From Prorocentrum cordatum (Eukaryota), in NCBI GenBank assembly GCA_963575745.1, contig CAUYUJ010000197.1, forward strand, positions 1 to 64,000: a stretch of 64,000 bases of DNA, given 5' to 3'. This document shows, piece after piece, positions 3,485-49,500 of this stretch. Numbering within the stretch: position 1 is the stretch's first letter; each line of letters starts with the position of its first letter. The position numbers and the translations under genes are program-made. The notes beneath the pieces were generated by a model. The model ran no database searches, was not told the DNA's origin, and saw only the letters and a program-made list of their open reading frames with translations.

Positions 3485-4234
3485 CATCATCCTCATCAGC
3501 ATCAGCATCAGCATCAGCATCAGCATCATCATCATCACCATCATCACCATCATCTTCTCAGCATCATCATCATCATCATCATCATCATCACCATCATCAT
3601 CATCATAGCCATCAGCATCGCTATCATCAGCAGCAGCATCATCATCATCACCATCATCACCATCATCATCAACATCGGCAGCATCAGCATCAGCATCATC
3701 ATCATCACCATCATCAGAATCATCGTCATCACCATCAGCAGCAGCAGCATCATCACCATCACCATCAGCATCATCATCATGATCATCATCATCATCATCA
3801 TCATCATCAGTATCATCATCATCGTCGTCATCATCATCGGCCTCATCATCATCGTCAGCATCCTCATCATCCTCATCCTCAGCCTCATCATCATCATCAT
3901 CAACAACAGCATCATCATCATCATCAGTGCCATCACCCTCATCATCATCATAATCATCATAATCAGCAGCATTATCATCATCATCATCATCAGCAGCAGC
4001 ATCATCAGTGTCATCATCATCAGCATCATCATCATCACCAGCATCACCAGCATCACCACCACCGCCACCATCACCATCATCACAACCATCACTATCATCA
4101 TCGGCATCATCATCACCATCATCACAATGATCACCATCATCATCGTCGTCATCCTCATCATCATCGTCGGTGTCGGCATCGTCATCATCATCAGCATCAT
4201 CACCATCAGCAGCAGCATCGTCATCATCATCATC

Positions 4235-4288
<54 letters not shown>

Positions 4289-4774
4289 GCCAGCATCATC
4301 ATCAGCCTAATCATCAGCATCATCCACAGCATCATCATCAGCAGCATTCTCATCATCATGAGCTGCCGCAGCATCAGCATCAGCATTACCAGCAGCATCA
4401 TCATCAGCAGCAGCATCATCATCCTCATCCTCACCCTCATCCTGAGCCTCCTCCTCCAACCATCAGGATCATCATCATCAGCACCATCATCAGCGTTGCC
4501 ATCATCATCGTCAGCATCAGCACCAGCATCAGCATCATCATCTTCGTCAGCAACAGTGCCATCATCACCCTCATCATCATCCTCATCCTCATCCTCATCC
4601 TCATCCTCATCAGCATCATCATCATCATCATCCACACCATCAAAATCATCATTTTCATCAGTATCATCAGCACCATCACCGTCTGTATCAGCATCATCCA
4701 CATCATCATCAGTATCATCAGCATGACCATCAACTCATCATCAGCATCACCATTAGCATCATCAGCACTAGCAT

Positions 4775-4808
<34 letters not shown>

Positions 4809-4841
4809 GGCAGCATCAGAATCATCACCACCACCACCTAT

Positions 4842-4891
<50 letters not shown>

Positions 4892-5966
4892 GATCATCAG
4901 CAGCAGCAGCAGCAGCCCCATCATCACCATCATCATTAGAACCAGCATCATCGTCATCACCATCATGTGCATCCTCCTCCGCATCATCAACAGCATCATC
5001 ATGATCGTCGTCATTACTGGCACCGTTCCTAATCATCAATATCATCATGACCAACATCACCACCACCGCTACCGCCAACAGCATCATCGTCATCATGATC
5101 ATCACCAGCGTCGTCCGCCTCCTCATCATCGTCGCCATCGCTGCCATCATCATCACCATCAGCATCCGCATCCTCATCCTCATCCTCACCATCGTCAGCA
5201 TCAGCATCAACATTTACATCATCATCATCATCAGCGACAGCATCAGCATCATCAGTATGATCACCACCACCATCGTCATCATCAGCACCACAGCCATCAT
5301 CACCAGAATCCCGAGCATCATCATCATCAGTAACATCAGCATCAGCATCATCATCATGATGATCATCAGCATCATCAGCATCATCATCGTCGTCATCATG
5401 ATCCTCATCATGTTCCGCATCCTCATCCCCGTCCTCCTACACGGCATCCTCATCATCACCAGCATCATCATCAGCATCATCATTATCATCAGCATCAGCA
5501 TCAGCATCAGCAACAACATCAACATCACCACCGCCGCCACCATCATCATCAGCATCAGCATCAGCATCGTCATCCGCCTCCTCGCCATCGTCGTCGAAAA
5601 CAGCAGCAGCGTCATCAGCATCATCAGCATCATGAGCATCAGCATAATCATGAGCATCATGACCACCGCCACCACCATCATCATCGTCGCCGGCATCATC
5701 ATCAGCATCATCACCACCATAGCCATAAGCATCGTCATCATGATCAGCATCAACATAATCAGGATCATGAGCAGCAGCATCACCATCATCATCAGCAGCA
5801 CCATCATCGCCACCACCGCTCCTCATCATCGATATGATCACCATCATCAGCATCATCAGCATCACCATCATCACCACCACTACCGCCACCATGTTCATGA
5901 TCATCGTCGTCGTCCTCCTCCTCATCGTCGTCATCGTCGTCATCATCATCATCAGGCCACCGCTAG

Positions 5967-6005
<39 letters not shown>

Positions 6006-6239
6006 CATCAGCATCATCATCATCATCAGCAGCATCATCAGCAGCATTGGCATCATCACCAGCATGATCACCACCACCACCATCATCATTAGCAGCATCA
6101 TCATCACCATCAGCATCAGCGCCATCATCATCCTCCCCATCGTTACCTTTGACGACAACAGCAGCATCATCAGCATCACCAGCGTCATCATCATCAGTGT
6201 CATCATTACCAACATTCCCACAATCGCCATCATCCCCGC

Positions 6240-6304
<65 letters not shown>

Positions 6305-6929
6305 TCATCATCAGCGGCATCATCATCATCATCATTATCATCATCATCATCCACACCAAAATCAGTATCATCAGCAACATCATCAGCATCATCACCGTCA
6401 GCATCGTCATCATCGTCATCGTCATCGTCACCAACACTGGCACCGTTCCTCATCAATCCAATCATCATGATCACCACAACCACCACCACTTCCGCCACCA
6501 GCAACATCATCATCCTCCCCATCATCGCCGTCATCGGCGTCCTTATCAGCATCATCATCACAACCATCAGTCATTCATCATCCTCATCATCATCATCATC
6601 ATCATCGTCCTCATGAGCATCATCAGCATCATCACCATCAACGACGCATCAGCATACTCATCATCAGCAGCATCAGCATCATCAGCATCACCATCATCAT
6701 CAACATCAGCATTAGTATCATCATCATTAGCAGCATCATCATCATCATCAGCAGCAGCATCATAATCAGCTTCATCACCATCGTCAGAATCATCATCATC
6801 ACCGCCACCACCATCATCATCATCAGCATCATCATCGACGTCCTCCTCGTCACCGTCGTGGACAACACCAGCAGCATCATCAGCATCATCAGCTCCATTA
6901 TCATCAGCAGCATCAGCATCATCAGCAGC

Positions 6930-6962
<33 letters not shown>

Positions 6963-7086
6963 GTCATCCCCATGTTCATAGTCATAATCAGCATCATCAG
7001 CATCATCAGCATCAGCATCAATACCATCGTCATCGTCATGATCACCATCAGCATCATCACCCGCATCAGCATCATCAGCATCGTCC

Positions 7087-7131
<45 letters not shown>

Positions 7132-7439
7132 GCATCAGCATCACCACCAGCATCATCGTCATCGTCATCAGCACTGGCACCGTTCCTCATCATCAATATC
7201 AGCATCATCATCGTCATCATCACCACCACCACTACCGCCACCATCATTATCCTCGTCATCATCATCATCATCACCATCAGCAGCAGGATCCTCATCATCA
7301 TCATCAGCATCAGCAGCATCAGCACCATCATCACCACCATCATCATCAGTAGTATCAGCATCACAATAAGCATCATCATCGCCATCATCAGCTTCAGCAT
7401 CATCATCATCATCACCGTCGTCATCATCATGAACATCAA

Positions 7440-7486
<47 letters not shown>

Positions 7487-7789
7487 CAACCATCATCATC
7501 AGTATCCCGCAGTCATCATCATGGTCATCCTCCTCGTTATCGTCGTCGACAACAGCAGCATCATCAGCATCATCAGCTTCATCATCATCATCACCACCAC
7601 GATCATCATCGTCATCATAGCCATAATCAGCATCATCATCAGCAGCATCACCAGCATCAGCATCATCACCATCATCAGCATCATCACCAACATCAGCATC
7701 AGCATCGGGATCATCATCAGCATCGTCATCATCGTCCTCATGATCGTCTTCATCATCATCAGCATCATCATCATCGACATCCTCCTCAC

Positions 7790-7839
<50 letters not shown>

Positions 7840-7985
7840 GCATTATCATCAGCAGCAGCAGCATCGTCATCGTCCTCGTCCTCATCCTCGTCAGCGTCAT
7901 CGTCCTCCTCCTCCTCGTCATTGTCGTCGTCAACAGCAGCAGCGGCAGCAGGAACATCGTCAGCAGCAGGATCAGCATCATCAGA
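3440..7985. repeat. ~4.5 kb degenerate (CAT/CAG/CAC)n tract with higher-order structure
   Basis: Continuous trinucleotide array. The landmark ACTGGCACCGTTCCT recurs at 5016, 6436 and 7173. Confidence 0.95.
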
Positions 7986-8031
7986 GGAAGGCAGGGCAAG
8001 AAGACGAGGGTGGGCGAACGGCTGCAGCCCC

Positions 8032-32166
<24,135 letters not shown>

Positions 32167-34304: not shown

Positions 34305-36790
34305 TGCAGCATCAGCATCATCATCATCACCACCACCATCAGCATCATCATCATCATCAGCAGCAGCAGCAGCATCAGCATCAGTATCAGCATCAGCATC
34401 ATCGCCGTCGTCATCGTCATCGACGTCATCATCACCATTATCGTCGCACCCAGTACAGCGCTTCGTGGCCCCATAGGGAGCTCCACCGAAGGTCCCACTG
34501 GCGCAGTTCGCATGCGCCTCCCCCACCCAGTATATACAGCGCTTCGTGGCCCCATAGGGAGCTCCACCGATGGTCCCAGTGGCGCAGTTCGCATGCGTCC
34601 CCCCCACCTAGTACAGCGCTTCGTGGCCCCATAGGGAGCTCCACCGATAGGGAGGTTTACCGAAGGTCCCAGTGGCGCAGTTCGCATGCGTCTCCCCCAC
34701 CCAGCACAGCGTTTCGTGGCCACATCGGGAGCTCGACCGATGGTCCCAGTGGCGAAGCCCGGATGCGTCTCCCCCACCCAGTACAGCTTTTCGGGGCCAC
34801 ACCGGGAGCTCCACCGAAGGTCCCAGTGGCGAAGCCCGCATGCGTCTCCCCCACCCAGTACAGCGGTTCGTGGCTCCGTAGGGAGCTCCACCGACGGTCC
34901 CAGTGGCGCGGTTCGCATGCGTCTCCCCCACCCAATACAACGTTTCGTGGCCCCATAGGGAGCTCCACCGAAGGTCCCAGTGGCGCAGCTCGCATGCGCC
35001 CCCCCAGCTAGTACAGCGTTTTGTGGCCCCATAAGGAGCTCCACCGACGGTCCGAGGGGCGCAGTTCGCATGCGTCTGCCCCATTCAGTACAAAGCGTCG
35101 TGGCCCCGTAGGGAGCTCCACCGATGGTCCCAGTGGCGCAGTTCGCACGCGTTTCCCCCATTCAGTACAGCGCTTCGTGGCCCCATAGGGAGCTCTACCG
35201 AAGGTCCCAGTGGCGCAGTTCGCAGGCGTCTTCCCCACCCAGTATAGTGTTTCGTGGACCCGTAGGGAGCTCCACCGAAGGTCCCAGTGGCGCAGCCCGC
35301 ATGCGTCTCCCCCACCCAGTACAGCGCTTCGTGGTCCCGCAGGGAGCTCCGCCGACGGTCCCAGTGGCGAAGCCCGCATGCGTTTCCCCCACCCAGTACA
35401 GCGCTACGTGGTCCCATAGGGAGCTCCACCGAAGGTCCCAGTGGCGCAGTCCGTATGCGTCTCCCACACCCAGTACAGCGTCTGTGGCCCCATAAGGAGA
35501 TCCACCGACGGTCCCAGGGGCGCAGTTCGCATGCGCCCCCCCTACCCAGTACAGCTTTTCGTGGCTCCGTAGGGAGCTCCACCGAAGGTCCCATTGGCGC
35601 AGTCCGTACGCGTCTCCCACACCCAGTACAGCGTGTCGTGACCCCATTGGGAGTTCCATCGAAGGTCCGAGTGGCGCAGCCCGCATGCGTCTCCCCCACC
35701 CAGTACAACGTTTCATAGTCTCGTAGGGAGCTCCACCGACGGTCCCAGGGGCGCAGCCCGCATGCGTCTCCCCCACCCAGCACAGCGCTTCGTGGCTGCA
35801 TAGGGAGCGGAGCCCCACCGAAGGTCCCAGTGGCGCAGTCCGTACGCGTCTCCCACACCCAGTACAGCGTGTCGTGACCCCATTGGGAGTTCCATCGAAG
35901 GTCCGAGTGGCGCAGCCCGCATGCGTCTCCCCCACCCAGTACAACGTTTCATAGTCTCGTAGGGAGCTCCACCGACGGTCCCAGGGGCGCAGCCCGCATG
36001 CGTCTCCCCCACCCAGCACAGCGCTTCGTGGCTGCATAGGGAGCGGAGCCCCACCGAAGGTCCCAGTGGCGCAGCCCGCATGCGTCTCCCCCACCCAGTA
36101 CAGCGTTTGGTGGCCTATCAGGGGGCTCCACCGAAGACGAGACCTACAACTGCGGTATTCACAACTGCATATGGCTGGGTTCTTCGCCAGGCGAATGTTT
36201 GACCAGGACGGCGGGGGTGTCAGCGTATTGCCTGCTGCGCGCAGGGCTACCATCCCTGACAAAAAAAACATACAACATGCACCTCGCGGCTAAATCTGGG
36301 CCATGCGCGGCAACCCCGAGATCACTGCCAAATGGTATGGTTCTTGACAGGGACGGCGGGGGTGCTGACCTATTGCCTGCTGTGCGCAGGCCCACCAGAC
36401 ACAATGATGGGCATTGGTTTTCGACAAGGCTGGTGGGGGCTGGCATGTTTCCCGATGTGTGCTATCACGCGCGCAGGAGCAACTGACACACTCTGCACGA
36501 GCCCCGAACGTGGCGCACCTGGCGCGGCTGCGTATGCGGCGCACCTGTCGCACGTGTATCACGTCGGGCATCTGGCGCACCAGGCGTGCCTGGCACGCTT
36601 CGGCCACCGGGGTGCCTGGCGCACCTGGCGCGCCTGGCACGCGTGGCGCACCTCGCCCCAGCGTCGCGCACATGGGCTCGGTTTTGGTTCCCATTAGCTG
36701 TCCATCCAAAGACGATCGCTGAACATGCTGCGGTTCGGGTGCTACTCGTGTGTTGGAAAAGCGGGTGGGAGTGAGATAGACAGCTTGCTA
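33110..36790. repeat. Two copies of a ~760-bp unit, the second split by a 2-kb insertion
   Basis: 33110-33200 resembles 33873-33960. 33280-33850 resembles 36208-36788 (for example CCATCCAAAGACGATCGCTGAACATGCTGCGG occurs in both). Confidence 0.8.
34101..36135 (-). mobile_element. Composite SINE-like element: ~22 x 77-bp satellite + (GAT/GCT)n + conserved tail
   Basis: The unit CAGTACAGCGCTTCGTGGCCCCATAGGGAGCTCCACCGAAGGTCCCAGTGGCGCAGTTCGCATGCGTCTCCCCCACC spans 34451-36135. A microsatellite lies at 34230-34445. The minus-strand tail reads TTTTCAAACCAAGGACCCAATTCCACAGGATGGTTGGGACAAAA. Confidence 0.7.
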
Positions 36791-37403
36791 TCTAGGAGGG
36801 TAGCTTGACCCCTCCCCCTACCCCCTCCCCCTCGACCTGGACGGGGCGGTTCCAAGACGGCCTCGGCGAGAAGGCCAAAATCATTGATGTACTAAGTTGT
36901 TGGTCCCATTTTGGCCTCCTGCGGGGGCACCGCTATTCAAGTACGCCCCCTTCTTTGATCGAACGCCTCCAAGATGGCTCAAAAACAGTTTCCGAGGCTC
37001 CCAAAAGTGATCCTCGCGCCCAGGAGGCCGCGAGAGGCCCCTAAGAGGTCCCCCAGAGGCTCCCCAAAGACCCCCAAGAGGTCCCATGAGGCTCCCCCAA
37101 GGCACCCAAGACTCTCCAAGAGGGCCCAGCGACCTACAAGAGGCCCCCAAGACGCACCAAGAGGCCTCCAAGAAACTATCAAGAGACATCCAAAGAAACT
37201 CCGAGAGGCATCCAAGAGGCCTCTGGCCTTCCTGCTCGCCCTCCTCATCCTCCTCCTACTCCTCCTCCTCTTCCTCCTCCTCCTCTTCCATGTATTCCTC
37301 CTGCTCCTCCAACTCCTCCTCTCTCTTCCCTACTCCACCTCCTCCTCCTCCTCCTCCTCCTCCTCCTCCTCCTCCTCCTCCTCCTCCTCCTCCTCCTCCT
37401 CCT

Positions 37404-37425
37404 TCCGTAGCCATTTTGGCTCATG
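37404..37425 (+). other. Relict dinoflagellate spliced leader (DinoSL)
   Basis: TCCGTAGCCATTTTGGCTCATG versus the known DinoSL DCCGTAGCCATTTTGGCTCAAG: 21/22 identical. It is not followed by the GT donor of an SL-RNA gene. Confidence 0.92.
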
Positions 37426-37546
37426 CCTTTCCGTAGGCCCCCCACTCCTGGACCTTGTCCCTCGGCGTACCCTGCGACCCCAGTCTGACGGGGCAACGTG
37501 GCGGGCGTGTGGGACTTGGGGGAGTGGGGCTTTTGGCTCACGGAGC

Positions 37547-38407
37547 ATGGCGCGGGCGGATGCCGATCATGGCGTCCCGAGGCGTTCGCGCGCTGAGCGC
37601 ACTGCTGCACGCCAGGCGGCCATCGCTAGCGTGGAGGCGGCGCTCAGGCGCATCACCACCGAGAGGGACGAGCTCAAGTCGAAGCTGGACCACCTCCTCA
37701 AGGCCACGGCGATGGCCTTGGATCTGCCAGCTGAGGTAGCAGATCGTGTGGTAGCTCTCGTCCCCTGTCTCACCAAGCTGGTCGAAGGAGTTCGGCCAGA
37801 GCACGCTGAAGTGCTGCGGAGGAATGTGGCGCTCCATTCGACGGCCCCTGGGGTCACGATTTCTGTAGCATCGAGCAAGGATCTTCGTTTCGCTCAGCAT
37901 GGGCCCCGTCTCGGGGCGCCCCGTGAGGCCAGTTTGCTGTCAGGTGCTCGTGTCACTGGAGCTGGTGATGTGTTCCAATGGAATGTGCATGCAGAGGTAT
38001 TTGTTCCTGCGGACGCTGCTAGTTGCGTTGTGCCCGATGTCACGGTAGATCTTTGTGATGTGGCTCATGTGCGTGATGATCCCGCTGGGGATACCGAGGC
38101 TGCCGTGCCGCCGGCAGACGTGGTGCAGGGGAAGCCTTCGGAGGGCGATGTGGATGCTGTTTTTTGTTCCTCATCGTCAGAACCAGCATGGGACGACATG
38201 GCCATAGTCAGCGAGGATAGGAGGCCCCCGTGTCATTGTCCCCTTGGGCCAGGTCTCGTGGAGTTCCGCTCCTGGGAGGATTTAGACCTGGAGTGCAACG
38301 CGTGTGGCATCCTCATGGTAAAAGGTACCCAGATGTATTCCTGCATGCACTGCGACCTTGAAATATGTGTCCCGTGCTTTTCGAGTGTTCGCATTGATAG
38401 TCGTTGA
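37547..38407 (+). CDS. Intronless 286-aa protein with N-terminal coiled coil, PAM2-like motif and C-terminal ZZ-like zinc finger (retrogene or retroelement ORF)
   Basis: Non-repetitive ORF MARADADHG...RIDSR*. It has a helical heptad region (IASVEAALRRITTERDELKSKLDHL), WNVHAEVFVP, and CNAC-x11-SCMHCDLEICVPC. It lies downstream of the DinoSL relic. Confidence 0.75.
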   Translation: MARADADHGVPRRSRAERTAARQAAIASVEAALRRITTERDELKSKLDHLLKATAMALDLPAEVADRVVALVPCLTKLVEGVRPEHAEVLRRNVALHSTAPGVTISVASSKDLRFAQHGPRLGAPREASLLSGARVTGAGDVFQWNVHAEVFVPADAASCVVPDVTVDLCDVAHVRDDPAGDTEAAVPPADVVQGKPSEGDVDAVFCSSSSEPAWDDMAIVSEDRRPPCHCPLGPGLVEFRSWEDLDLECNACGILMVKGTQMYSCMHCDLEICVPCFSSVRIDSR

Positions 38408-38919
38408 TGGCTCAGTTTGTTCTGCGTGCTCACATGTTTCGGAGGTATGGCATTTCGTTGTCTGGGTAAATATTATGCTGCAGTTTGTGCTGTATGTGGC
38501 AGACGCTTCCTGGCACTCAGTTTGTGTATTTCCTTGGGCAGCTTAGTGTTCATGTCCACGAAGATTGTGTACAGCAGACACGTACGCCAGCGGCTACATC
38601 TTCGTAGCCCTCTGCCTCTCCCTCGTCATGTTCGGCATTGTCGTGGAGTTCCAGAAGGGCGTTGTTCAGCGGCCCTGGCTCGGTGGCTGCTCAGTGTGGT
38701 CACCGCCAGAGGCCTTTACTGGAGAGGAGCTCTCTCCAGCAGATGCCTTGTTAAAAAGTCCTCCTCCTCCTCTTCCTCCTCCTCCTTCTCCTTCTCCGAT
38801 TCCTTCTCCATCCTTCCATACTTGGAGGAGGGGAGGAGGGGGGAGGAGCAGAAGGAGGCCGGGGCGACCACACTGCTCTGTTCAAAACGAGTACCCAACC
38901 AAAGGAGGGTTGGGAAAAA

Positions 38920-40285
38920 ACACCATTGGCTAAAAAACAGCTCTATCTGGAAACCCTTGGTCAAAACATATCTGTTTTGCGATGGAGATGGGGAGCACGA
39001 CCACCCTTTCCGATAAATTGTCGATTTGCTTCTTGGATTCGGGCTCTGAGCGCGGGAGCCCAATACAAAAAAACAGCACCACTTGTCAAAAAAGTAGCGC
39101 AACCTGGAAACCCTTGCTCAAAACATATTTGTTCACGGTAGAAATCGGGAGCACGACCACCCTGTCCGATATATTGTCGAATTGCTTCTTGGAGCCGGGC
39201 TCTCAGCCCGGGATCCCAACACAAAGAAAACACCATTTGTCAAAAAAACTAGCTCTATCCGGACACCCCTGCTCAAAACAAATAAGTTCCGGTATAGAAA
39301 TCGGCAACACGACCACCCTTTCCGATATATTGCCGATTTGCCTCTTGGATTCGGGCTCTCAACCCGGGATCCAAACACAAAAAAAAACATTGGCTAAAAA
39401 GCAGCTCTATCCGGAAAGCCCTGCTCAAAACATATCTGCTTTGGGATAAAATCGGGAACACGACCACCCTTTCCGATATATTGTCGATTTGCTTCTTGGA
39501 TTCGGGCCCTGAGCCCGGGATCCCAACACAACAAAACCCCATGTGTCACAAGACAGCTCAACACGGAAACCCCTGCTCAAAACAGATATGTTTCGCGATA
39601 GAAATCGGAAACACGACCACCCTGTCCGATATATTGTCGATTTGCCTCTTGGATTCGGGCTCTGAACGCGGGAGCCCGACACACAAAAAAACACCATTTG
39701 TCAAAAAACAGCTCAATCCGGACATCCCTGCTCAAAACAAATACGTTCTGGTATAGAAATCGGCAACACGACCACCCTTTCCGATATATTCCCGATTTGC
39801 CTCTTGGACTCGGGCTCTGAGCCCAGGATCCAACCCCCCAAAAAAAAAACATTGGCTAAAAAGCAGCTCTATCCAGAAACCCCTGTTCAAAACATATCTG
39901 CTTTGCGATAGAAATCGGGAACACGACCACCCTTTCCCGATATTTTGTCGATTTGCTTCTTGGATTCGTGCTATGAGCTCGGGATCACAAAACAACAGAA
40001 CCCCAATTGTCACAAGACAGCTCAGCCCGGAAACCCGTGCTCAAAACATACTTATATGTTTCGCGATAGAAATCAGGAACACGACCACCCTTTCCGTGTC
40101 GATGTGCCTCTCTGAGCGCGGGAGCCCGACACACAAAAAAACACCACTTGTCCAAAAACAGCTCAACCCGGAAACCCCTGCTCCAAACATACATGTTTTG
40201 CGATAGAAATCGGAAAACACGACCACCCTTTCCGATATATAGTCGATTTGCTTCTTGGATCTGGGCTCTGAGCCCGGGGTCCCAA
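38920..40285. repeat. AT-richer tandem satellite, ~150-156-bp unit, ~9 copies
   Basis: CACGACCACCC recurs at 38996, 39152, 39308, 39459 and onward. Units contain A-tracts. Confidence 0.92.
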
Positions 40286-40544
40286 CGGGGGAGTGCAAGG
40301 AGACTTCGAAGGGTTTCGGCGGCTGGAGCGGAGAGAGAGTGACGGGCGACCTCGAGATACGACGCACCCCTGAGCCTCGATGTGGGCCGCGACACGGAGG
40401 AGGCACTGAGAAACATGAAGAATGGCCTCTTGGATGCTCTGGGGGGGTGCAGGGAACTTCCGAAAGGCTTTGGTCTCGTCTAAGCAAGCTTGGAGTGCCC
40501 CGGCGGGGGTCTGGGGGGCTGTCACGAACGTATCCACAGCCCCG

Positions 40545-43329: not shown

Positions 43330-43523
43330 GCTGCTACTACTACTACTACTACTACTAATACTACTACTNNNNNNNNNNNNNNNNNNNNNNNNNNNNNNNN
43401 NNNNNNNNNNNNNNNNNNNNNNNNNNNNNNNNNNNNNNNNNNNNNNNNNNNNNNNNNNNNNNNNNNNNTGAGTAGTAGTAGTAAGTAGTAGTAGTTAGTT
43501 AGTAGTAGTTAGTAGTTAGTAGT

Positions 43524-46535: not shown

Positions 46536-49500
46536 GCTCGTCCGACCCGGACCCCCTCGGGTCACTGAACAATCATGACGGTGGGTTGCTCGCGCTTTTC
46601 TGCCTCCGGGGGCCCTCGCCGGGCCCCAGTACCGTTGAGGAAGGACTCAGTGTGAACACTAGAGATGGGAAAACGCCACAAACATAAATTTGTGGCGTTC
46701 CGCGCGGATTTCTTGGATCCGCGCTGGGTCCCCCCAGCGGCGCCTCTGGCGCCGCCCCTGGCGCGCGGAGCGCGCCAGGGAGGGGGGTCCAGCGCAGATC
46801 CGAGAAATCCGCGCGGCGCGCCAACAGTTGATGTTAATGCCGTTTTCAATTCTTCTTTTAGAAATGCCATTCCGGAGAATGTGTCGGGACTTCTGGGGGT
46901 CGGCGTCATACACAAGTCGTGGCGTCGGTGGCTTGGGGAGGAGGGCCCCCGTGGATTGGCCGTGCTCGCAGGCGACCTCTCGCCCCCCCCAACAAAAACC
47001 CGACTCGGCCACGACGAGTCGGGCGCCGCTCAGAGAAGGACTTGGCATCGCTCGGACGTGTGCGTGTTTCCTTCGTCGAGGACCATCGAGGAGCATCCTT
47101 GATCATTTGGCAAAAAAACACGCACGAAACCGAAAAAAAAACAGGGAATGGACGTCCGAGCGATGGCAGGAGGAGGGGGGGGGGGGCTCGGGGATATGCG
47201 CACCCCTGGGGGCCACTCTCGGGTGCATCCCTGTCACAGGTGGGCGCTCCCTGGCCGTGCCTCCCCGCGCATGGCCCCCAAACGTTTGGGGCCCGCTCGC
47301 GAGCCCCCACACGAGGTCGGAGGCGGGGGCTCCACGCGTCCCCTGGTTGTGTGGCGGAGGAGGTCGAGGGGGAGGAGGGGGAGGGGGAGGGAGGGAGGAG
47401 GAGGAGGAGGGAGGAGGAGGAGGAGGAGGAGGAGGAGGAGGAGGAGGAGGAGGAGGAGGAGGAGGAGGAGGAGGGGTAGGAGGGCGATGCCTCTTGCTCC
47501 GTCCCGGCGCGGGGCTTCCTCGGGCCGCGGCCTCCATGGGGGGGCCCGCTGCCCAGGCCTCCCTCGGGGGTCCGGGCCTCCCGGAGGAGGGGGGGGGGCC
47601 CGAGCAGAGGAGGGGTCGGAGAGGATCGCGCGCCGCAGCGCCGATGCCTCGACGATGCGGCTCGCTGTGGAGCCAGTGTTTCCCCACGCCGACGTCGTCG
47701 ACACATCGCCGATGCATCGCCGATGCATCGCCGATGCATCGGCGTGGCACTGGGGGGGCCATCGACGCTGGAGCCGTGGCGGAGCGCTCGCCCAGGGCGG
47801 AGTGGGCTTCTGTTTCCGTCCTGGCGCGCTCCTCCTTCTCACTTCGGCCTCCAGAGCGGCCAGCGTTTCGGGCTCCGGGCCGATCCAAAGAGTGGATCTG
47901 GGACGAGCAGCAGACTCTGGGAAAGGGGTCGGGACTTCTGCGGCCTGCGGACTGACGACAAGCACATTCCCTAGGACGTCTGGGAGCGAGGCTTTGGGAC
48001 GGTTTTTGCTGTTCTCGTTTTTCGGGGTCTTCTGAATGCCTCTGGCGCCTTCCACGGAGGCTTTCGGAAGCGGACGAGGGGACGGAGCCAGGAGGAGGAG
48101 GAGGAGGAGGAGGAGGAGGAGGAGGAGGAGGAGGAGGAGGAGGAGGGAGAGGAGGAGGAGAAGGAGGAGGAGGAGGAGGAGGAGGAGGAGGAGGGTTGTG
48201 CGGGCGAGGGGAGGTGGCCGCCGGAGGCCAACGAGGTGGACGTGGCCATCATGCTCAGCGAGGGGGCCGTGGCGAGGGCAGCCGCGGGAGGCCCCTTCAA
48301 GGTGGCGGGTGGCGGCCACGAAGCGTTCGTGCTCTGGGCGGTCCCCAGCGGGCCTCGTCTTGGGCATCGCGGGATCGACGCCTCGCCCTCGGGGCGAGGG
48401 GCGGCGCGGCCACGAGGCAGTCTTTGTGAGCGTTCCACAGCGGGTCTCGTCTTGGGCGTCGTGAAGTCGACGTGTCTCGCCCCCGCGGGGGGGCCGACGG
48501 GAGGGGCCGCATTTGAGCAGCCTCGGCGCGGAGGTTTGTGGAAGGCGCGGAAGGTGGGGCAGAGGCTGGAGGAAGTGCGCGAAAGGTGGAGTTTTCTTCG
48601 CCACCCGTTTGTGCCCCGCCCTCAGTCAGCGCCCGCCGATGGGCGGCCGGCTGTTGCGGCTTGTCGCTCCGGGGTCTGCACGGCTCTTCTGACAGGGCGC
48701 CGGTTTCGGTGGCAGCGTGCCCACGAGAGTGTTGTATTTCTGGCTCCCGAGGTTGTGGGCACCTACGTGCAGTCGCCTTTGAGATGGGGCGTTCACACAA
48801 AAAGAGGAAGTCAGAGGAGAAGCAGGTACCGATACACTGCCCTTCCGTCGTCTCCAACTTTTTGGGTGCCTCCTGGGAGGCCCTCGTCGACACTGCTGGA
48901 TTCGCTTCGAATTCTGAGTCAGGACGTTCCCTAGGAGAGGTCCAGGGAGCAATATCTTTCTGATTCCCCAGGAAGCGGTATTAGTAGCATCGCCGACCTG
49001 AAGGGCAAGGTCTTCGGGGTGTCGAGGATGCTGAGCGGCTCTCACCTGATGGCCTACGTCATGGCCCATGAGCGTGGCTGGGACTTGAGCAAGGATGCGC
49101 CCCTGAAGCTCTGCGGGACCCTCGATGGTGCTCGCGAGGCGATGGGCAAGGGAGAGATAGATGCGTGGTTGTGGGAGAAGTTCACAACCAAATTTCTGGT
49201 GGACAGCGGGGAGTGGGATATCGTGGGCGAAGTGCCCACTCCGTGGCCTTGTTTCCTGATAGTGGCCTCTGACCGTGCCATCGAGAGCCACGGGAGGGAG
49301 ATCCGCGCAATAGTCGAAGCCACCAGCCCCGTCTGCAAGGAATTTAAGGCGAACAGCGGGGGAACCACTTTCGCCTACGTGGCCAAGCACCACGCCTTGC
49401 AGGACGAGCAGGATATGATGTTCCAACAGGAGGAGGAGAAGGAGAAGGGCGGGTAGGAATAATGAGAAGGCGCATGAGGTGGGAGGATAACTAGGTGAGC

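Follow-up and report, generated by a model that had tools for sequence, protein, structure and literature searches.

What is the gene at positions 37547..38407 on the plus strand of this Prorocentrum cordatum contig: part of a mobile element, or a host gene that reached its place by retroposition? The stretch analysed here, referred to as the window, comprises the first 64,000 nucleotides of contig CAUYUJ010000197.1 and consists of GC-rich, repeat-laden eukaryotic DNA. The initial annotation recognised in the encoded protein (P0001) a heptad-like N-terminus, a PAM2-like motif and a ZZ-like finger, and proposed an ORF1-like factor of a self-mobilising retroposon that bears a spliced leader (SL). 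Judged from its sequence, the locus is instead a processed retrogene, an intact copy of an mRNA, and its product belongs to a large and diverged protein family in which the PAM2-like motif is conserved. The reading that we favour, with a probability of about 0.55, is that P0001 is an adaptor: the linker motif would dock on the MLLE domain of poly(A)-binding protein (PABP), and the N-terminal domain (N-domain) and the finger would bind other partners on polyadenylated messenger ribonucleoprotein particles (mRNPs). The coding region and its parts are as follows.

37547..38407, plus strand: intronless coding sequence (CDS) of P0001, 286 aa, stop codon included; an uninterrupted open reading frame (ORF), along which the RNA-library contigs have no joints.
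37577..37912, plus strand: family-defining N-terminal helical domain, residues 11-122, delimited by AlphaFold2 and conservation.
37979..38008, plus strand: PAM2-like motif WNVHAEVFVP, residues 145-154, in a poorly conserved linker of variable length, located by pattern and alignment.
38231..38380, plus strand: finger C229 H230 C231 ... C250xxC253 x13 C267xxC270 x4 C275xxC278, DC1/C1-like or ZZ-like.
38408..38752, plus strand: 3' untranslated region of ~345 nt, covered by an RNA-library contig (run X2) over 38562-38752.

The start codon (ATG at 37547) is collinear with the MAR... starts of homologues, and the frame closes with TGA at 38405-38407. The initial annotation had placed all three elements exactly, namely the frame of 286 codons, the motif at residues 145-154 and the finger (CHCPLGPGL...CNAC...YSCMHCDLEICVPC) at residues 229-278.

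The family was delineated from a small seed. A word-index search returned four relatives of P0001, one MMETSP transcript and three Prorocentrum cordatum proteins, and a profile built from these five sequences was searched against 1.84 billion representatives. At E<=1e-3 it matched 224 representative clusters, of which 113 remain at E<=1e-10 and 7 at E<=1e-30; among the listed matches, the aligned region almost always spans positions ~3-150 and lies at the protein N-terminus. The RRNxAxH domain anchor falls within the first 130 residues in 104 of 112 cases. Relatives are 24-53% identical in the alignment, apart from one transcript fragment at 99%. When the word-index search was run again with the 146-sequence alignment, it gave five matches, of which only P0157 was new, and no relative was found in the metagenome contigs searched for loci related to P0029 and query A1. 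Full-text searches on PAM2, MLLE and PABP in dinoflagellates yielded no description of this family.

Among 30 clusters that were looked up, 11 are named Prorocentrum cordatum, one has a EukProt label and 18 are short environmental contigs; P0003, P0004, P0005 and P0157 also belong to Prorocentrum cordatum. The species-named members checked all come from this organism except two EukProt entries labelled Pyramimonas, and NCBI nr adds the label Polarella glacialis for several of these family sequences. The two exceptions carry the name Pyramimonas sp. CCMP1952, a green-alga label: P0006 is 99% identical to the window ORF, and P0156 shares a 90%-identity cluster with proteins of Prorocentrum cordatum. 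As the named relatives are dinoflagellate, the label likely reflects cross-contamination of the transcriptome. The amino-acid composition of P0010, P0029 and P0081 is visibly different, which suggests that other taxa are represented in the family.

The PAM2-like motif recurs across the family. Of 152 family proteins, 54 contain the pattern [LFWM][NSR]..A..[FY].P (55 sites), against a mean of 0.26 and a maximum of 3 in 200 composition-preserving shuffles, and a stricter ELM-type pattern is found in 22 of 152 (0.86 expected). The motif keeps a consistent place behind the N-domain. Where the domain anchor is present and followed by at least 90 residues (82 proteins), the motif lies within 130 residues of RRNxAxH in 40, at a median distance of 45 residues and a range of 36-124. 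In the MAFFT alignment of 146 sequences, conservation is high up to residue 122 (GPRL), collapses together with occupancy at 123-144, and recovers over residues 145-154, where single columns reach L.66, A.65, F.58, V.54 and P.79. A conserved island in a low-occupancy linker is, at the level of sequence, the usual signature of a short linear motif. Its consensus in the family is L-[RNS]-[AP]-[DE]-A-[AP]-[PVE]-F-V-P, and divergent members come near canonical PAM2 (LNPNAAEFFP, LSPLAKEFVP, LNPLAKEFVP). A Pfam scan of the 146 members at E<=1 returned PAM2 (PF07145) as the commonest family, with 14 matches. The motif singled out by the initial annotation is therefore conserved in homologues, where it often lies nearer to the canonical LNxxAxEFxP than in P0001.

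The conserved residues are those that matter in known complexes. According to excerpts of a structural account (PMC7356810), Leu-3 and Phe-10 of the PAM2 consensus LNxxAxEFxP are the pocket anchors, Asn-4 stabilises the turn and Ala-7 is sterically required; Phe can fill the Leu pocket, as in eRF3. P0001 keeps N146, A149, F152 and P154, which correspond to PAM2 positions 4, 7, 10 (Phe or Trp) and 12, and the residues kept in the family coincide with the anchor positions of the solved PAM2-MLLE complexes described there. Position 3 is Leu at 37 of the 55 sites, Trp at 12, and Met and Phe at 3 each. Prorocentrum cordatum is reported to have two PABPs with RRM1-4 and a C-terminal PABP domain (PMC12787238, in part), so that a host PABP receptor is plausibly present. 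We infer that the linker motif docks on the MLLE of cytoplasmic PABP.

The initial annotation had described the N-terminus as heptad-like, and structure prediction bears this out. AlphaFold2 with 146 homologues, which replaced an earlier, poor run with five sequences (pLDDT 49.6), places helices at residues 15-58, 62-79, 86-97 and 110-117, with a block-mean pLDDT of 93-98 over residues 11-120. The family consensus is hydrophobic or Ala at positions 25, 29, 32, 36, 40, 43, 47, 50, 54 and 57 along the long first helix, a spacing of 3-4 residues. R67, P73, R92, N93, H97 and A108 are near-invariant. No Pfam model matches this domain in scans of P0001 and its relatives; a candidate match to DUF7801 on residues 1-79 was dismissed (E 0.11; 13 bits, where the cut-off is 33). 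Foldseek against the PDB found nothing for the domain at E<=0.001 (best 2.7), the family profile against PDB sequences reached only RecN (E 0.021, not meaningful), and ESM Atlas gave no usable match for residues 1-160. The best alignment in a wide VIA-align search (Z 5.6) covered residues 6-60 alone, with coiled coils and single helices as partners, which does not imply a novel fold.

The C-terminal finger is shared by a subset of the family. Its Cys pattern is common to P0001, P0064, P0100, P0108 and P0131, with a variant form in P0002, and seven Cys columns are invariant in the six aligned fingers. The consensus reads C-x(1-3)-C/H, ~18 residues, (Y)xCDxC, 13 residues, CxxC(D), 3-4 residues, CxxC. 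In P0001, C1_2/DC1 (PF03107) scores 18.8 bits on the whole protein and 22.7 on the isolated segment, below the gathering cut-off of 26; ZZ (PF00569) scores 15.4 and 19.1 bits (E 0.0011 for the isolated segment), below its cut-off of 21.4. Among the isolated fingers at E<=1, C1_2 matches five of six (best 1.3e-5) and ZZ only that of P0001. When the finger profile was compared with the PDB, the best match was 6tly_A, annotated 'protein kinase, putative' (E 1.1e-4), followed at E ~0.006-0.02 by FYVE, a cellulose-synthase RING-type domain and the ZZ domain of HERC2; the ZZ domains of p300 and CBP are also among the matches. Thus, the Cys-rich finger of the initial annotation is real, but its identification as ZZ is loose, with C1_2/DC1 the best match and ZZ the next, both under cut-off. 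In ZZ fingers, a His/Cys pair behind the third ligand pair makes the second zinc site complete. The last eight residues of P0001, past C278, contain neither Cys nor His, and the upstream C229/H230/C231 cluster may substitute for the trailing pair, as in C1-type fingers. The finger is probably a cross-brace that would coordinate two zinc ions, closest to DC1/C1.

Other members end differently, in a RING (P0020) or a PHD (P0044) finger. Twelve members (for example P0004, P0014, P0031 and P0034) carry the element G-[IVM]-R-C-T-C-G-A-x-x-F-S-S 20-60 residues past the PAM2-like motif; P0001 has neither this RCTCGAxxFSS element nor a Trp after the motif. P0007 from Prorocentrum cordatum (925 aa) contains three N-domain stretches and the motif LRADAPPFVP twice (residues 130 and 535), and is for this reason probably an array of tandem family copies merged into one gene model.

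The adaptor that we envisage would work with three parts. The N-domain (~115 residues, including the 44-residue heptad-patterned helix) is likely to serve in oligomerisation or target binding. The flexible linker would attach the protein, through its PAM2-type motif, to the C-terminal MLLE of cytoplasmic PABP. The C-terminus, which varies among members and is here the putative two-zinc DC1/ZZ-like finger, would act as effector or as a second binding module. Such an adaptor would bring finger and N-domain to polyadenylated mRNPs and could affect their translation, stability or localisation.

The route by which the gene reached this place can be read from its flanks.

37240..37403, no strand: (CCT)n microsatellite, upstream flank of the retrocopy (TRF: period 3, 54 copies).
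37404..37425, plus strand: near-complete relic of the dinoflagellate spliced leader DinoSL (TCCGTAGCCATTTTGGCTCAtG), 5' end of the copied mRNA, identical to DinoSL at 20 of 21 bases.
37530..37540, plus strand: a further leader relic, partial and decayed (cTTTTGGCTCA), located 7 nt before the ATG by a partial-leader search.
38753..38757, plus strand: run of five A (A5), possibly a poly(A)-tail remnant closing the retrocopy on its 3' side (weak evidence), read from the sequence.
38759..38830, no strand: TCC-rich sequence flanking the copy downstream, which would fit insertion into a TCC microsatellite; a hairpin with the following GGA-rich stretch is possible.

The spliced leader implied by the title of the initial annotation is real. 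The sequence CCGTAGCCATTTTGGCTCAtG at 37405-37425 has 20 of the 21 DinoSL bases on the gene strand, 122 nt before the ATG, and this match, with its single mismatch, is absent from all 100 shuffles. Partial leader matches number 6 in the window against 0.8 expected, and one of them, at 37530-37540 on the gene strand, stands shortly before the start codon. Directly upstream of the near-complete relic, TCC, CCT and CTC occupy 76% of the trinucleotide positions of 37240..37403. Leader relics upstream of coding sequences mark genes retroposed from mRNA (excerpts of PMC6050394, also the source of the DinoSL sequence). Because such a relic is the usual mark of these copies, we regard the gene as retroposed. 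The region fits a ~1.35-kb mRNA copy (37404-38757) inserted into a TCC microsatellite: an mRNA with a trans-spliced 22-nt leader would have been reverse-transcribed and then inserted into (TCC)n. The limits of the insert are taken from the A5 run and from the TCC-rich repeats on both sides; since the run is brief and a target-site duplication would be masked by the repeats, these limits are provisional.

Retrogenes of this kind are common in dinoflagellates. In two Symbiodinium genomes, ~22-23% of the genes are leader-relic retrogenes (PMC6050394, in part), and 477 retrogenes are given for Prorocentrum minimum, where retroposition is ascribed to off-target activity of retrotransposon reverse transcriptase (RT; sections of PMC12014239). 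Within the present family, a translated DinoSL (PFWLK or AILAQ) opens 6 of 157 proteins, 15-30 residues before the Met, which indicates a leader, or the relic of one, in further members too. By these sequence traces, the family spreads partly through the ordinary retroposition common to dinoflagellate genes. An Rfam scan of 36500-39500 found no spliced-leader RNA gene and returned only sub-threshold miRNA-like matches. These come from the TCC-rich and then GGA-rich run at 38757-38865, which forms a long hairpin (best miRNA-precursor match 37 bits, gathering 77), and are taken as a low-complexity artefact. Leader-like sequence also turns up away from the gene. A 77-bp satellite occupies 34647-36136 in 19 copies, and three minus-strand units of a related ~80-bp repeat (22000-23600) contain CCATTTTGGCGCA, at 23129, 23308 and 23389, a 12/13 match to the leader core that may be due to chance or to a leader-derived satellite.

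Contigs from four sequencing runs in four studies, three of them RNA libraries and one (X1) only guessed to be RNA, cover pieces of 37420-38752, mostly at 90-99% identity and in two cases at >=99%. The mapping skipped the repeats at 37250-37412 and 38753-38809, left several bins within the gene uncovered in every run and is silent on transcript ends; a contig of run X2 has a 25-letter loose end before 37467 that is not leader sequence. A 161-nt X1 contig corresponds to 37480-37640 with 0 differences, and the transcriptome ORF P0006 is identical to P0001 at 148 of 149 residues (56-204). Of the 17 differences from the CDS, 9 leave the amino acid unchanged and 8 alter it; with 213 synonymous and 645 non-synonymous sites available, pN/pS among the RNA-library variants is 0.29 (one-sided binomial p = 0.012). 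The gene copy has remained intact and is probably still expressed; it also appears to be under purifying selection.

Docking on PABP has to be weighed against observations that speak against it. The strict pattern is absent from 42 of the 82 testable members, several of which have one-off variants (LRAEAPAFVI, LSADAAEFML); all 14 PF07145 matches in relatives are weak (best E 0.0056), and P0001 itself has none at E<=1. P0001 has Trp145 where the consensus has Leu, and we found no report of Trp in the Leu pocket of MLLE. Arg, at 20 of 55 sites, is as common at position 4 as the Asn of canonical PAM2. Residues 141-160 have a pLDDT of 70-75 in the deep-alignment model, so the segment could pack on the N-domain instead of being free. 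A complex prediction of the N-domain (1-125) with residues 131-170 scored 0.00, without controls, and gives no evidence either way. The finger, for its part, lies in the region beyond residue 200 with pLDDT <45 and falls under every Pfam cut-off. Several of these points would suit another explanation, in which L/W-x-x-x-A-x-x-F-V-P is a family-specific element unrelated to PABP, either the ligand of another partner or a strand packing on the N-domain, and the resemblance to PAM2 has arisen by convergence. At position 9 (12-residue PAM2 numbering; seventh motif residue), Glu is less frequent than Pro or Val, and 19 of the 55 sites have a family-specific Trp 2-7 residues past the Pro (FVPGxGxWEP). 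To our knowledge, a Trp shortly after the Pro is not a feature of canonical PAM2. A fixed structural element is difficult to reconcile with the distance of 36-124 residues between anchor and motif and with the low occupancy of the linker, which argue for a free short linear motif. Moreover, the four kept positions are those that contact MLLE (PMC7356810, in part), and in the most divergent members the motif converges towards the textbook form, LNPNAxEFxP. A PABP-unrelated element is accordingly a possibility to which we give clearly less than even odds, and a PABP-docking motif remains the preferred reading.

Two further explanations were considered, one of which is the initial proposal: an ORF1-like nucleic-acid chaperone of a non-autonomous SL-bearing retroposon, which would bind poly(A) via PABP and promote its own or general retroposition. 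In its favour, the gene arose as a retrocopy and still has a leader relic, and at least 6 of 157 relatives have a translated leader before the start, but leader relics occur on roughly a fifth of dinoflagellate genes (excerpts of PMC6050394) and the 477 retrogenes of Prorocentrum minimum point the same way (PMC12014239, in part). Long helix, poly(A)-linked motif and zinc finger loosely recall ORF1 proteins; Pfam scans of P0001 and family members, however, found neither an RRM nor a CCHC knuckle. Rather than a single-copy gene, P0001 is a member of a very large family, as that proposal would lead one to expect, yet its relatives are diverged paralogues and not near-identical copies, and synonymous changes are in excess. 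The window contains 317 stop-to-stop ORFs of >=120 aa, and none of the 137 tested with Pfam (>=130 aa, not low-complexity) has a reverse transcriptase, endonuclease (EN) or transposase domain. RT-linked relatives were likewise absent: 0 of 150 relatives, six of them longer than 600 aa, have an RT, endonuclease or transposase domain. The word-index search found no relatives of 502-2000 aa (weak evidence). Variants of 90-99% identity occur in the sequencing runs, and the window holds one copy, with no second copy or repeat of the unit in its 64 kb. Together, the lack of RT/EN, the divergence, the single copy in the window and the synonymous excess indicate a diverged cellular multigene family that is not self-mobilising. 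The ORF1-like reading is already largely refuted, and we consider it extremely unlikely; with the motif conserved and RT-linked relatives absent, the motif idea survives and the ORF1 idea falls. The other explanation treats the copy as a retropseudogene without function, too young for its frame to have decayed; the RNA contigs would then stem from the parent or sister copies. The surroundings are repeat-rich and gene-poor, with satellites and microsatellites, and among annotated proteins the protein search returned none with exactly the sequence of the ORF. Between the RNA contigs and the window, 1-5% of positions differ; an X1 contig has, besides 10 other differences, a 1-nt insertion after 38319 that shifts the frame, from which it follows that close sister copies, some possibly broken, may exist. 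The libraries are metatranscriptome contigs, which show presence and do not by themselves prove transcription of this exact copy. The A5 run and repeat flanks are weak evidence for the exact insertion limits. Against a pseudogene stand the intact frame of 286 codons with its start, domain, motif and all seven invariant finger Cys, the 161-nt X1 contig without differences (from the run only guessed to be RNA), the 148/149 identity of the transcriptome fragment and the pN/pS of 0.29 among near-identical variants. This explanation is improbable in our estimate, and an intact, functional retrogene coding for a candidate adaptor is retained.

The rest of the window offers little coding context. The only other window ORF with a Pfam match lies at 48935-49453 on the plus strand (PBP2_Ca3427_like, E 4e-14, or NMT1-THI5-like) and is probably one exon of a gene of the thiamine-pyrimidine-synthesis or substrate-binding type. 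A tandem array with a 155-bp period (38915-40286, 9 copies, 77% identity) adjoins the retrogene on its downstream side. The assembly has a gap of 100 N (43369-43468) between (CTA)n and (AGT)n microsatellites, a (GAC)125 microsatellite occupies 30000-30375, and 4001-8000 is a strongly strand-skewed, low-complexity block of lower GC (GC 0.47, GC skew -0.55).

The family as a whole, with its conserved PAM2-type motif, confidently folded N-domain and varied zinc-finger ends, provides testable candidate PABP partners in dinoflagellates, whereas the origin of the gene by retroposition is nothing unusual. In dinoflagellates, control of gene expression is described as mainly post-transcriptional, and in the available sections of the same 2026 review of their RNA-binding proteins PABP diversity is undocumented and PAM2 goes unmentioned (PMC12787238). 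Tentatively, the family could be a large set of translational regulators, not described so far, that are tethered to PABP and carry exchangeable effector ends (DC1/ZZ, RING, PHD). We regard as very improbable a further idea, that the family (>200 diverged clusters) docks on PABP at the poly(A) of SL mRNAs and takes part in the recycling of mRNA by retroposition, which has shaped the genomes of dinoflagellates, its own expansion as retrogenes being a by-product of cis action on its own transcripts, ORF1-like but without a linked RT.

The locus can be compared with several known systems. Like ORF1 of LINE-1 and other non-LTR elements, it encodes a protein in which a long helix at the N-terminus precedes a module related to nucleic acids, and it arose by retroposition. 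Unlike them, it has no ORF2/RT/EN partner in the window or among relatives, no RRM/CTD or CCHC knuckle, and its relatives are diverged paralogues of cellular type. With the DinoSL-tagged retrogenes of Slamovits and Keeling (2008) and Song et al. (2017), as related in parts of PMC6050394, the locus shares the upstream relic, the second, decayed relic nearer the ATG and the intronless copy; it is no different in kind from these and is an ordinary example.

The finger resembles DC1/C1_2 and ZZ fingers in the arrangement CxxC-x13-CxxC-x4-CxxC with an upstream C/H pair. It differs from ZZ fingers in the absence of the trailing His pair, and from DC1 fingers in the replacement of the final His by Cys. 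The PAM2 partners of PABP (PAIP1/2, Ataxin-2, eRF3, LARP4/4B, Tob and others; LIG_PAM2, PF07145) likewise present a motif of 10-12 residues in a disordered stretch, and the family has in common with them a hydrophobic third position, Asn or Ser at position 4, Ala at position 7, Phe at position 10 and Pro at position 12. Here, in contrast, the motif is joined to an N-domain that no Pfam model matches, position 3 is Trp in P0001 and position 4 is Arg in many relatives, and binding to MLLE is predicted.

A similar, adaptor-type architecture, in which short MLLE-docking motifs precede a C-terminal finger as second binding module, is found in Upa1 of Ustilago maydis, which is reportedly far larger than P0001 and has further domains. 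There is no sequence relationship between the two, and the finger of P0001 is best described as DC1/C1-like, not FYVE, although its profile also weakly matches FYVE domains in the PDB (E 0.006-0.02). Upa1 combines PAM2 and PAM2-like motifs with a FYVE zinc finger (PMC4466420, in part), and P0001 likewise presents a PAM2-like motif followed by a putative C-terminal cross-brace finger.

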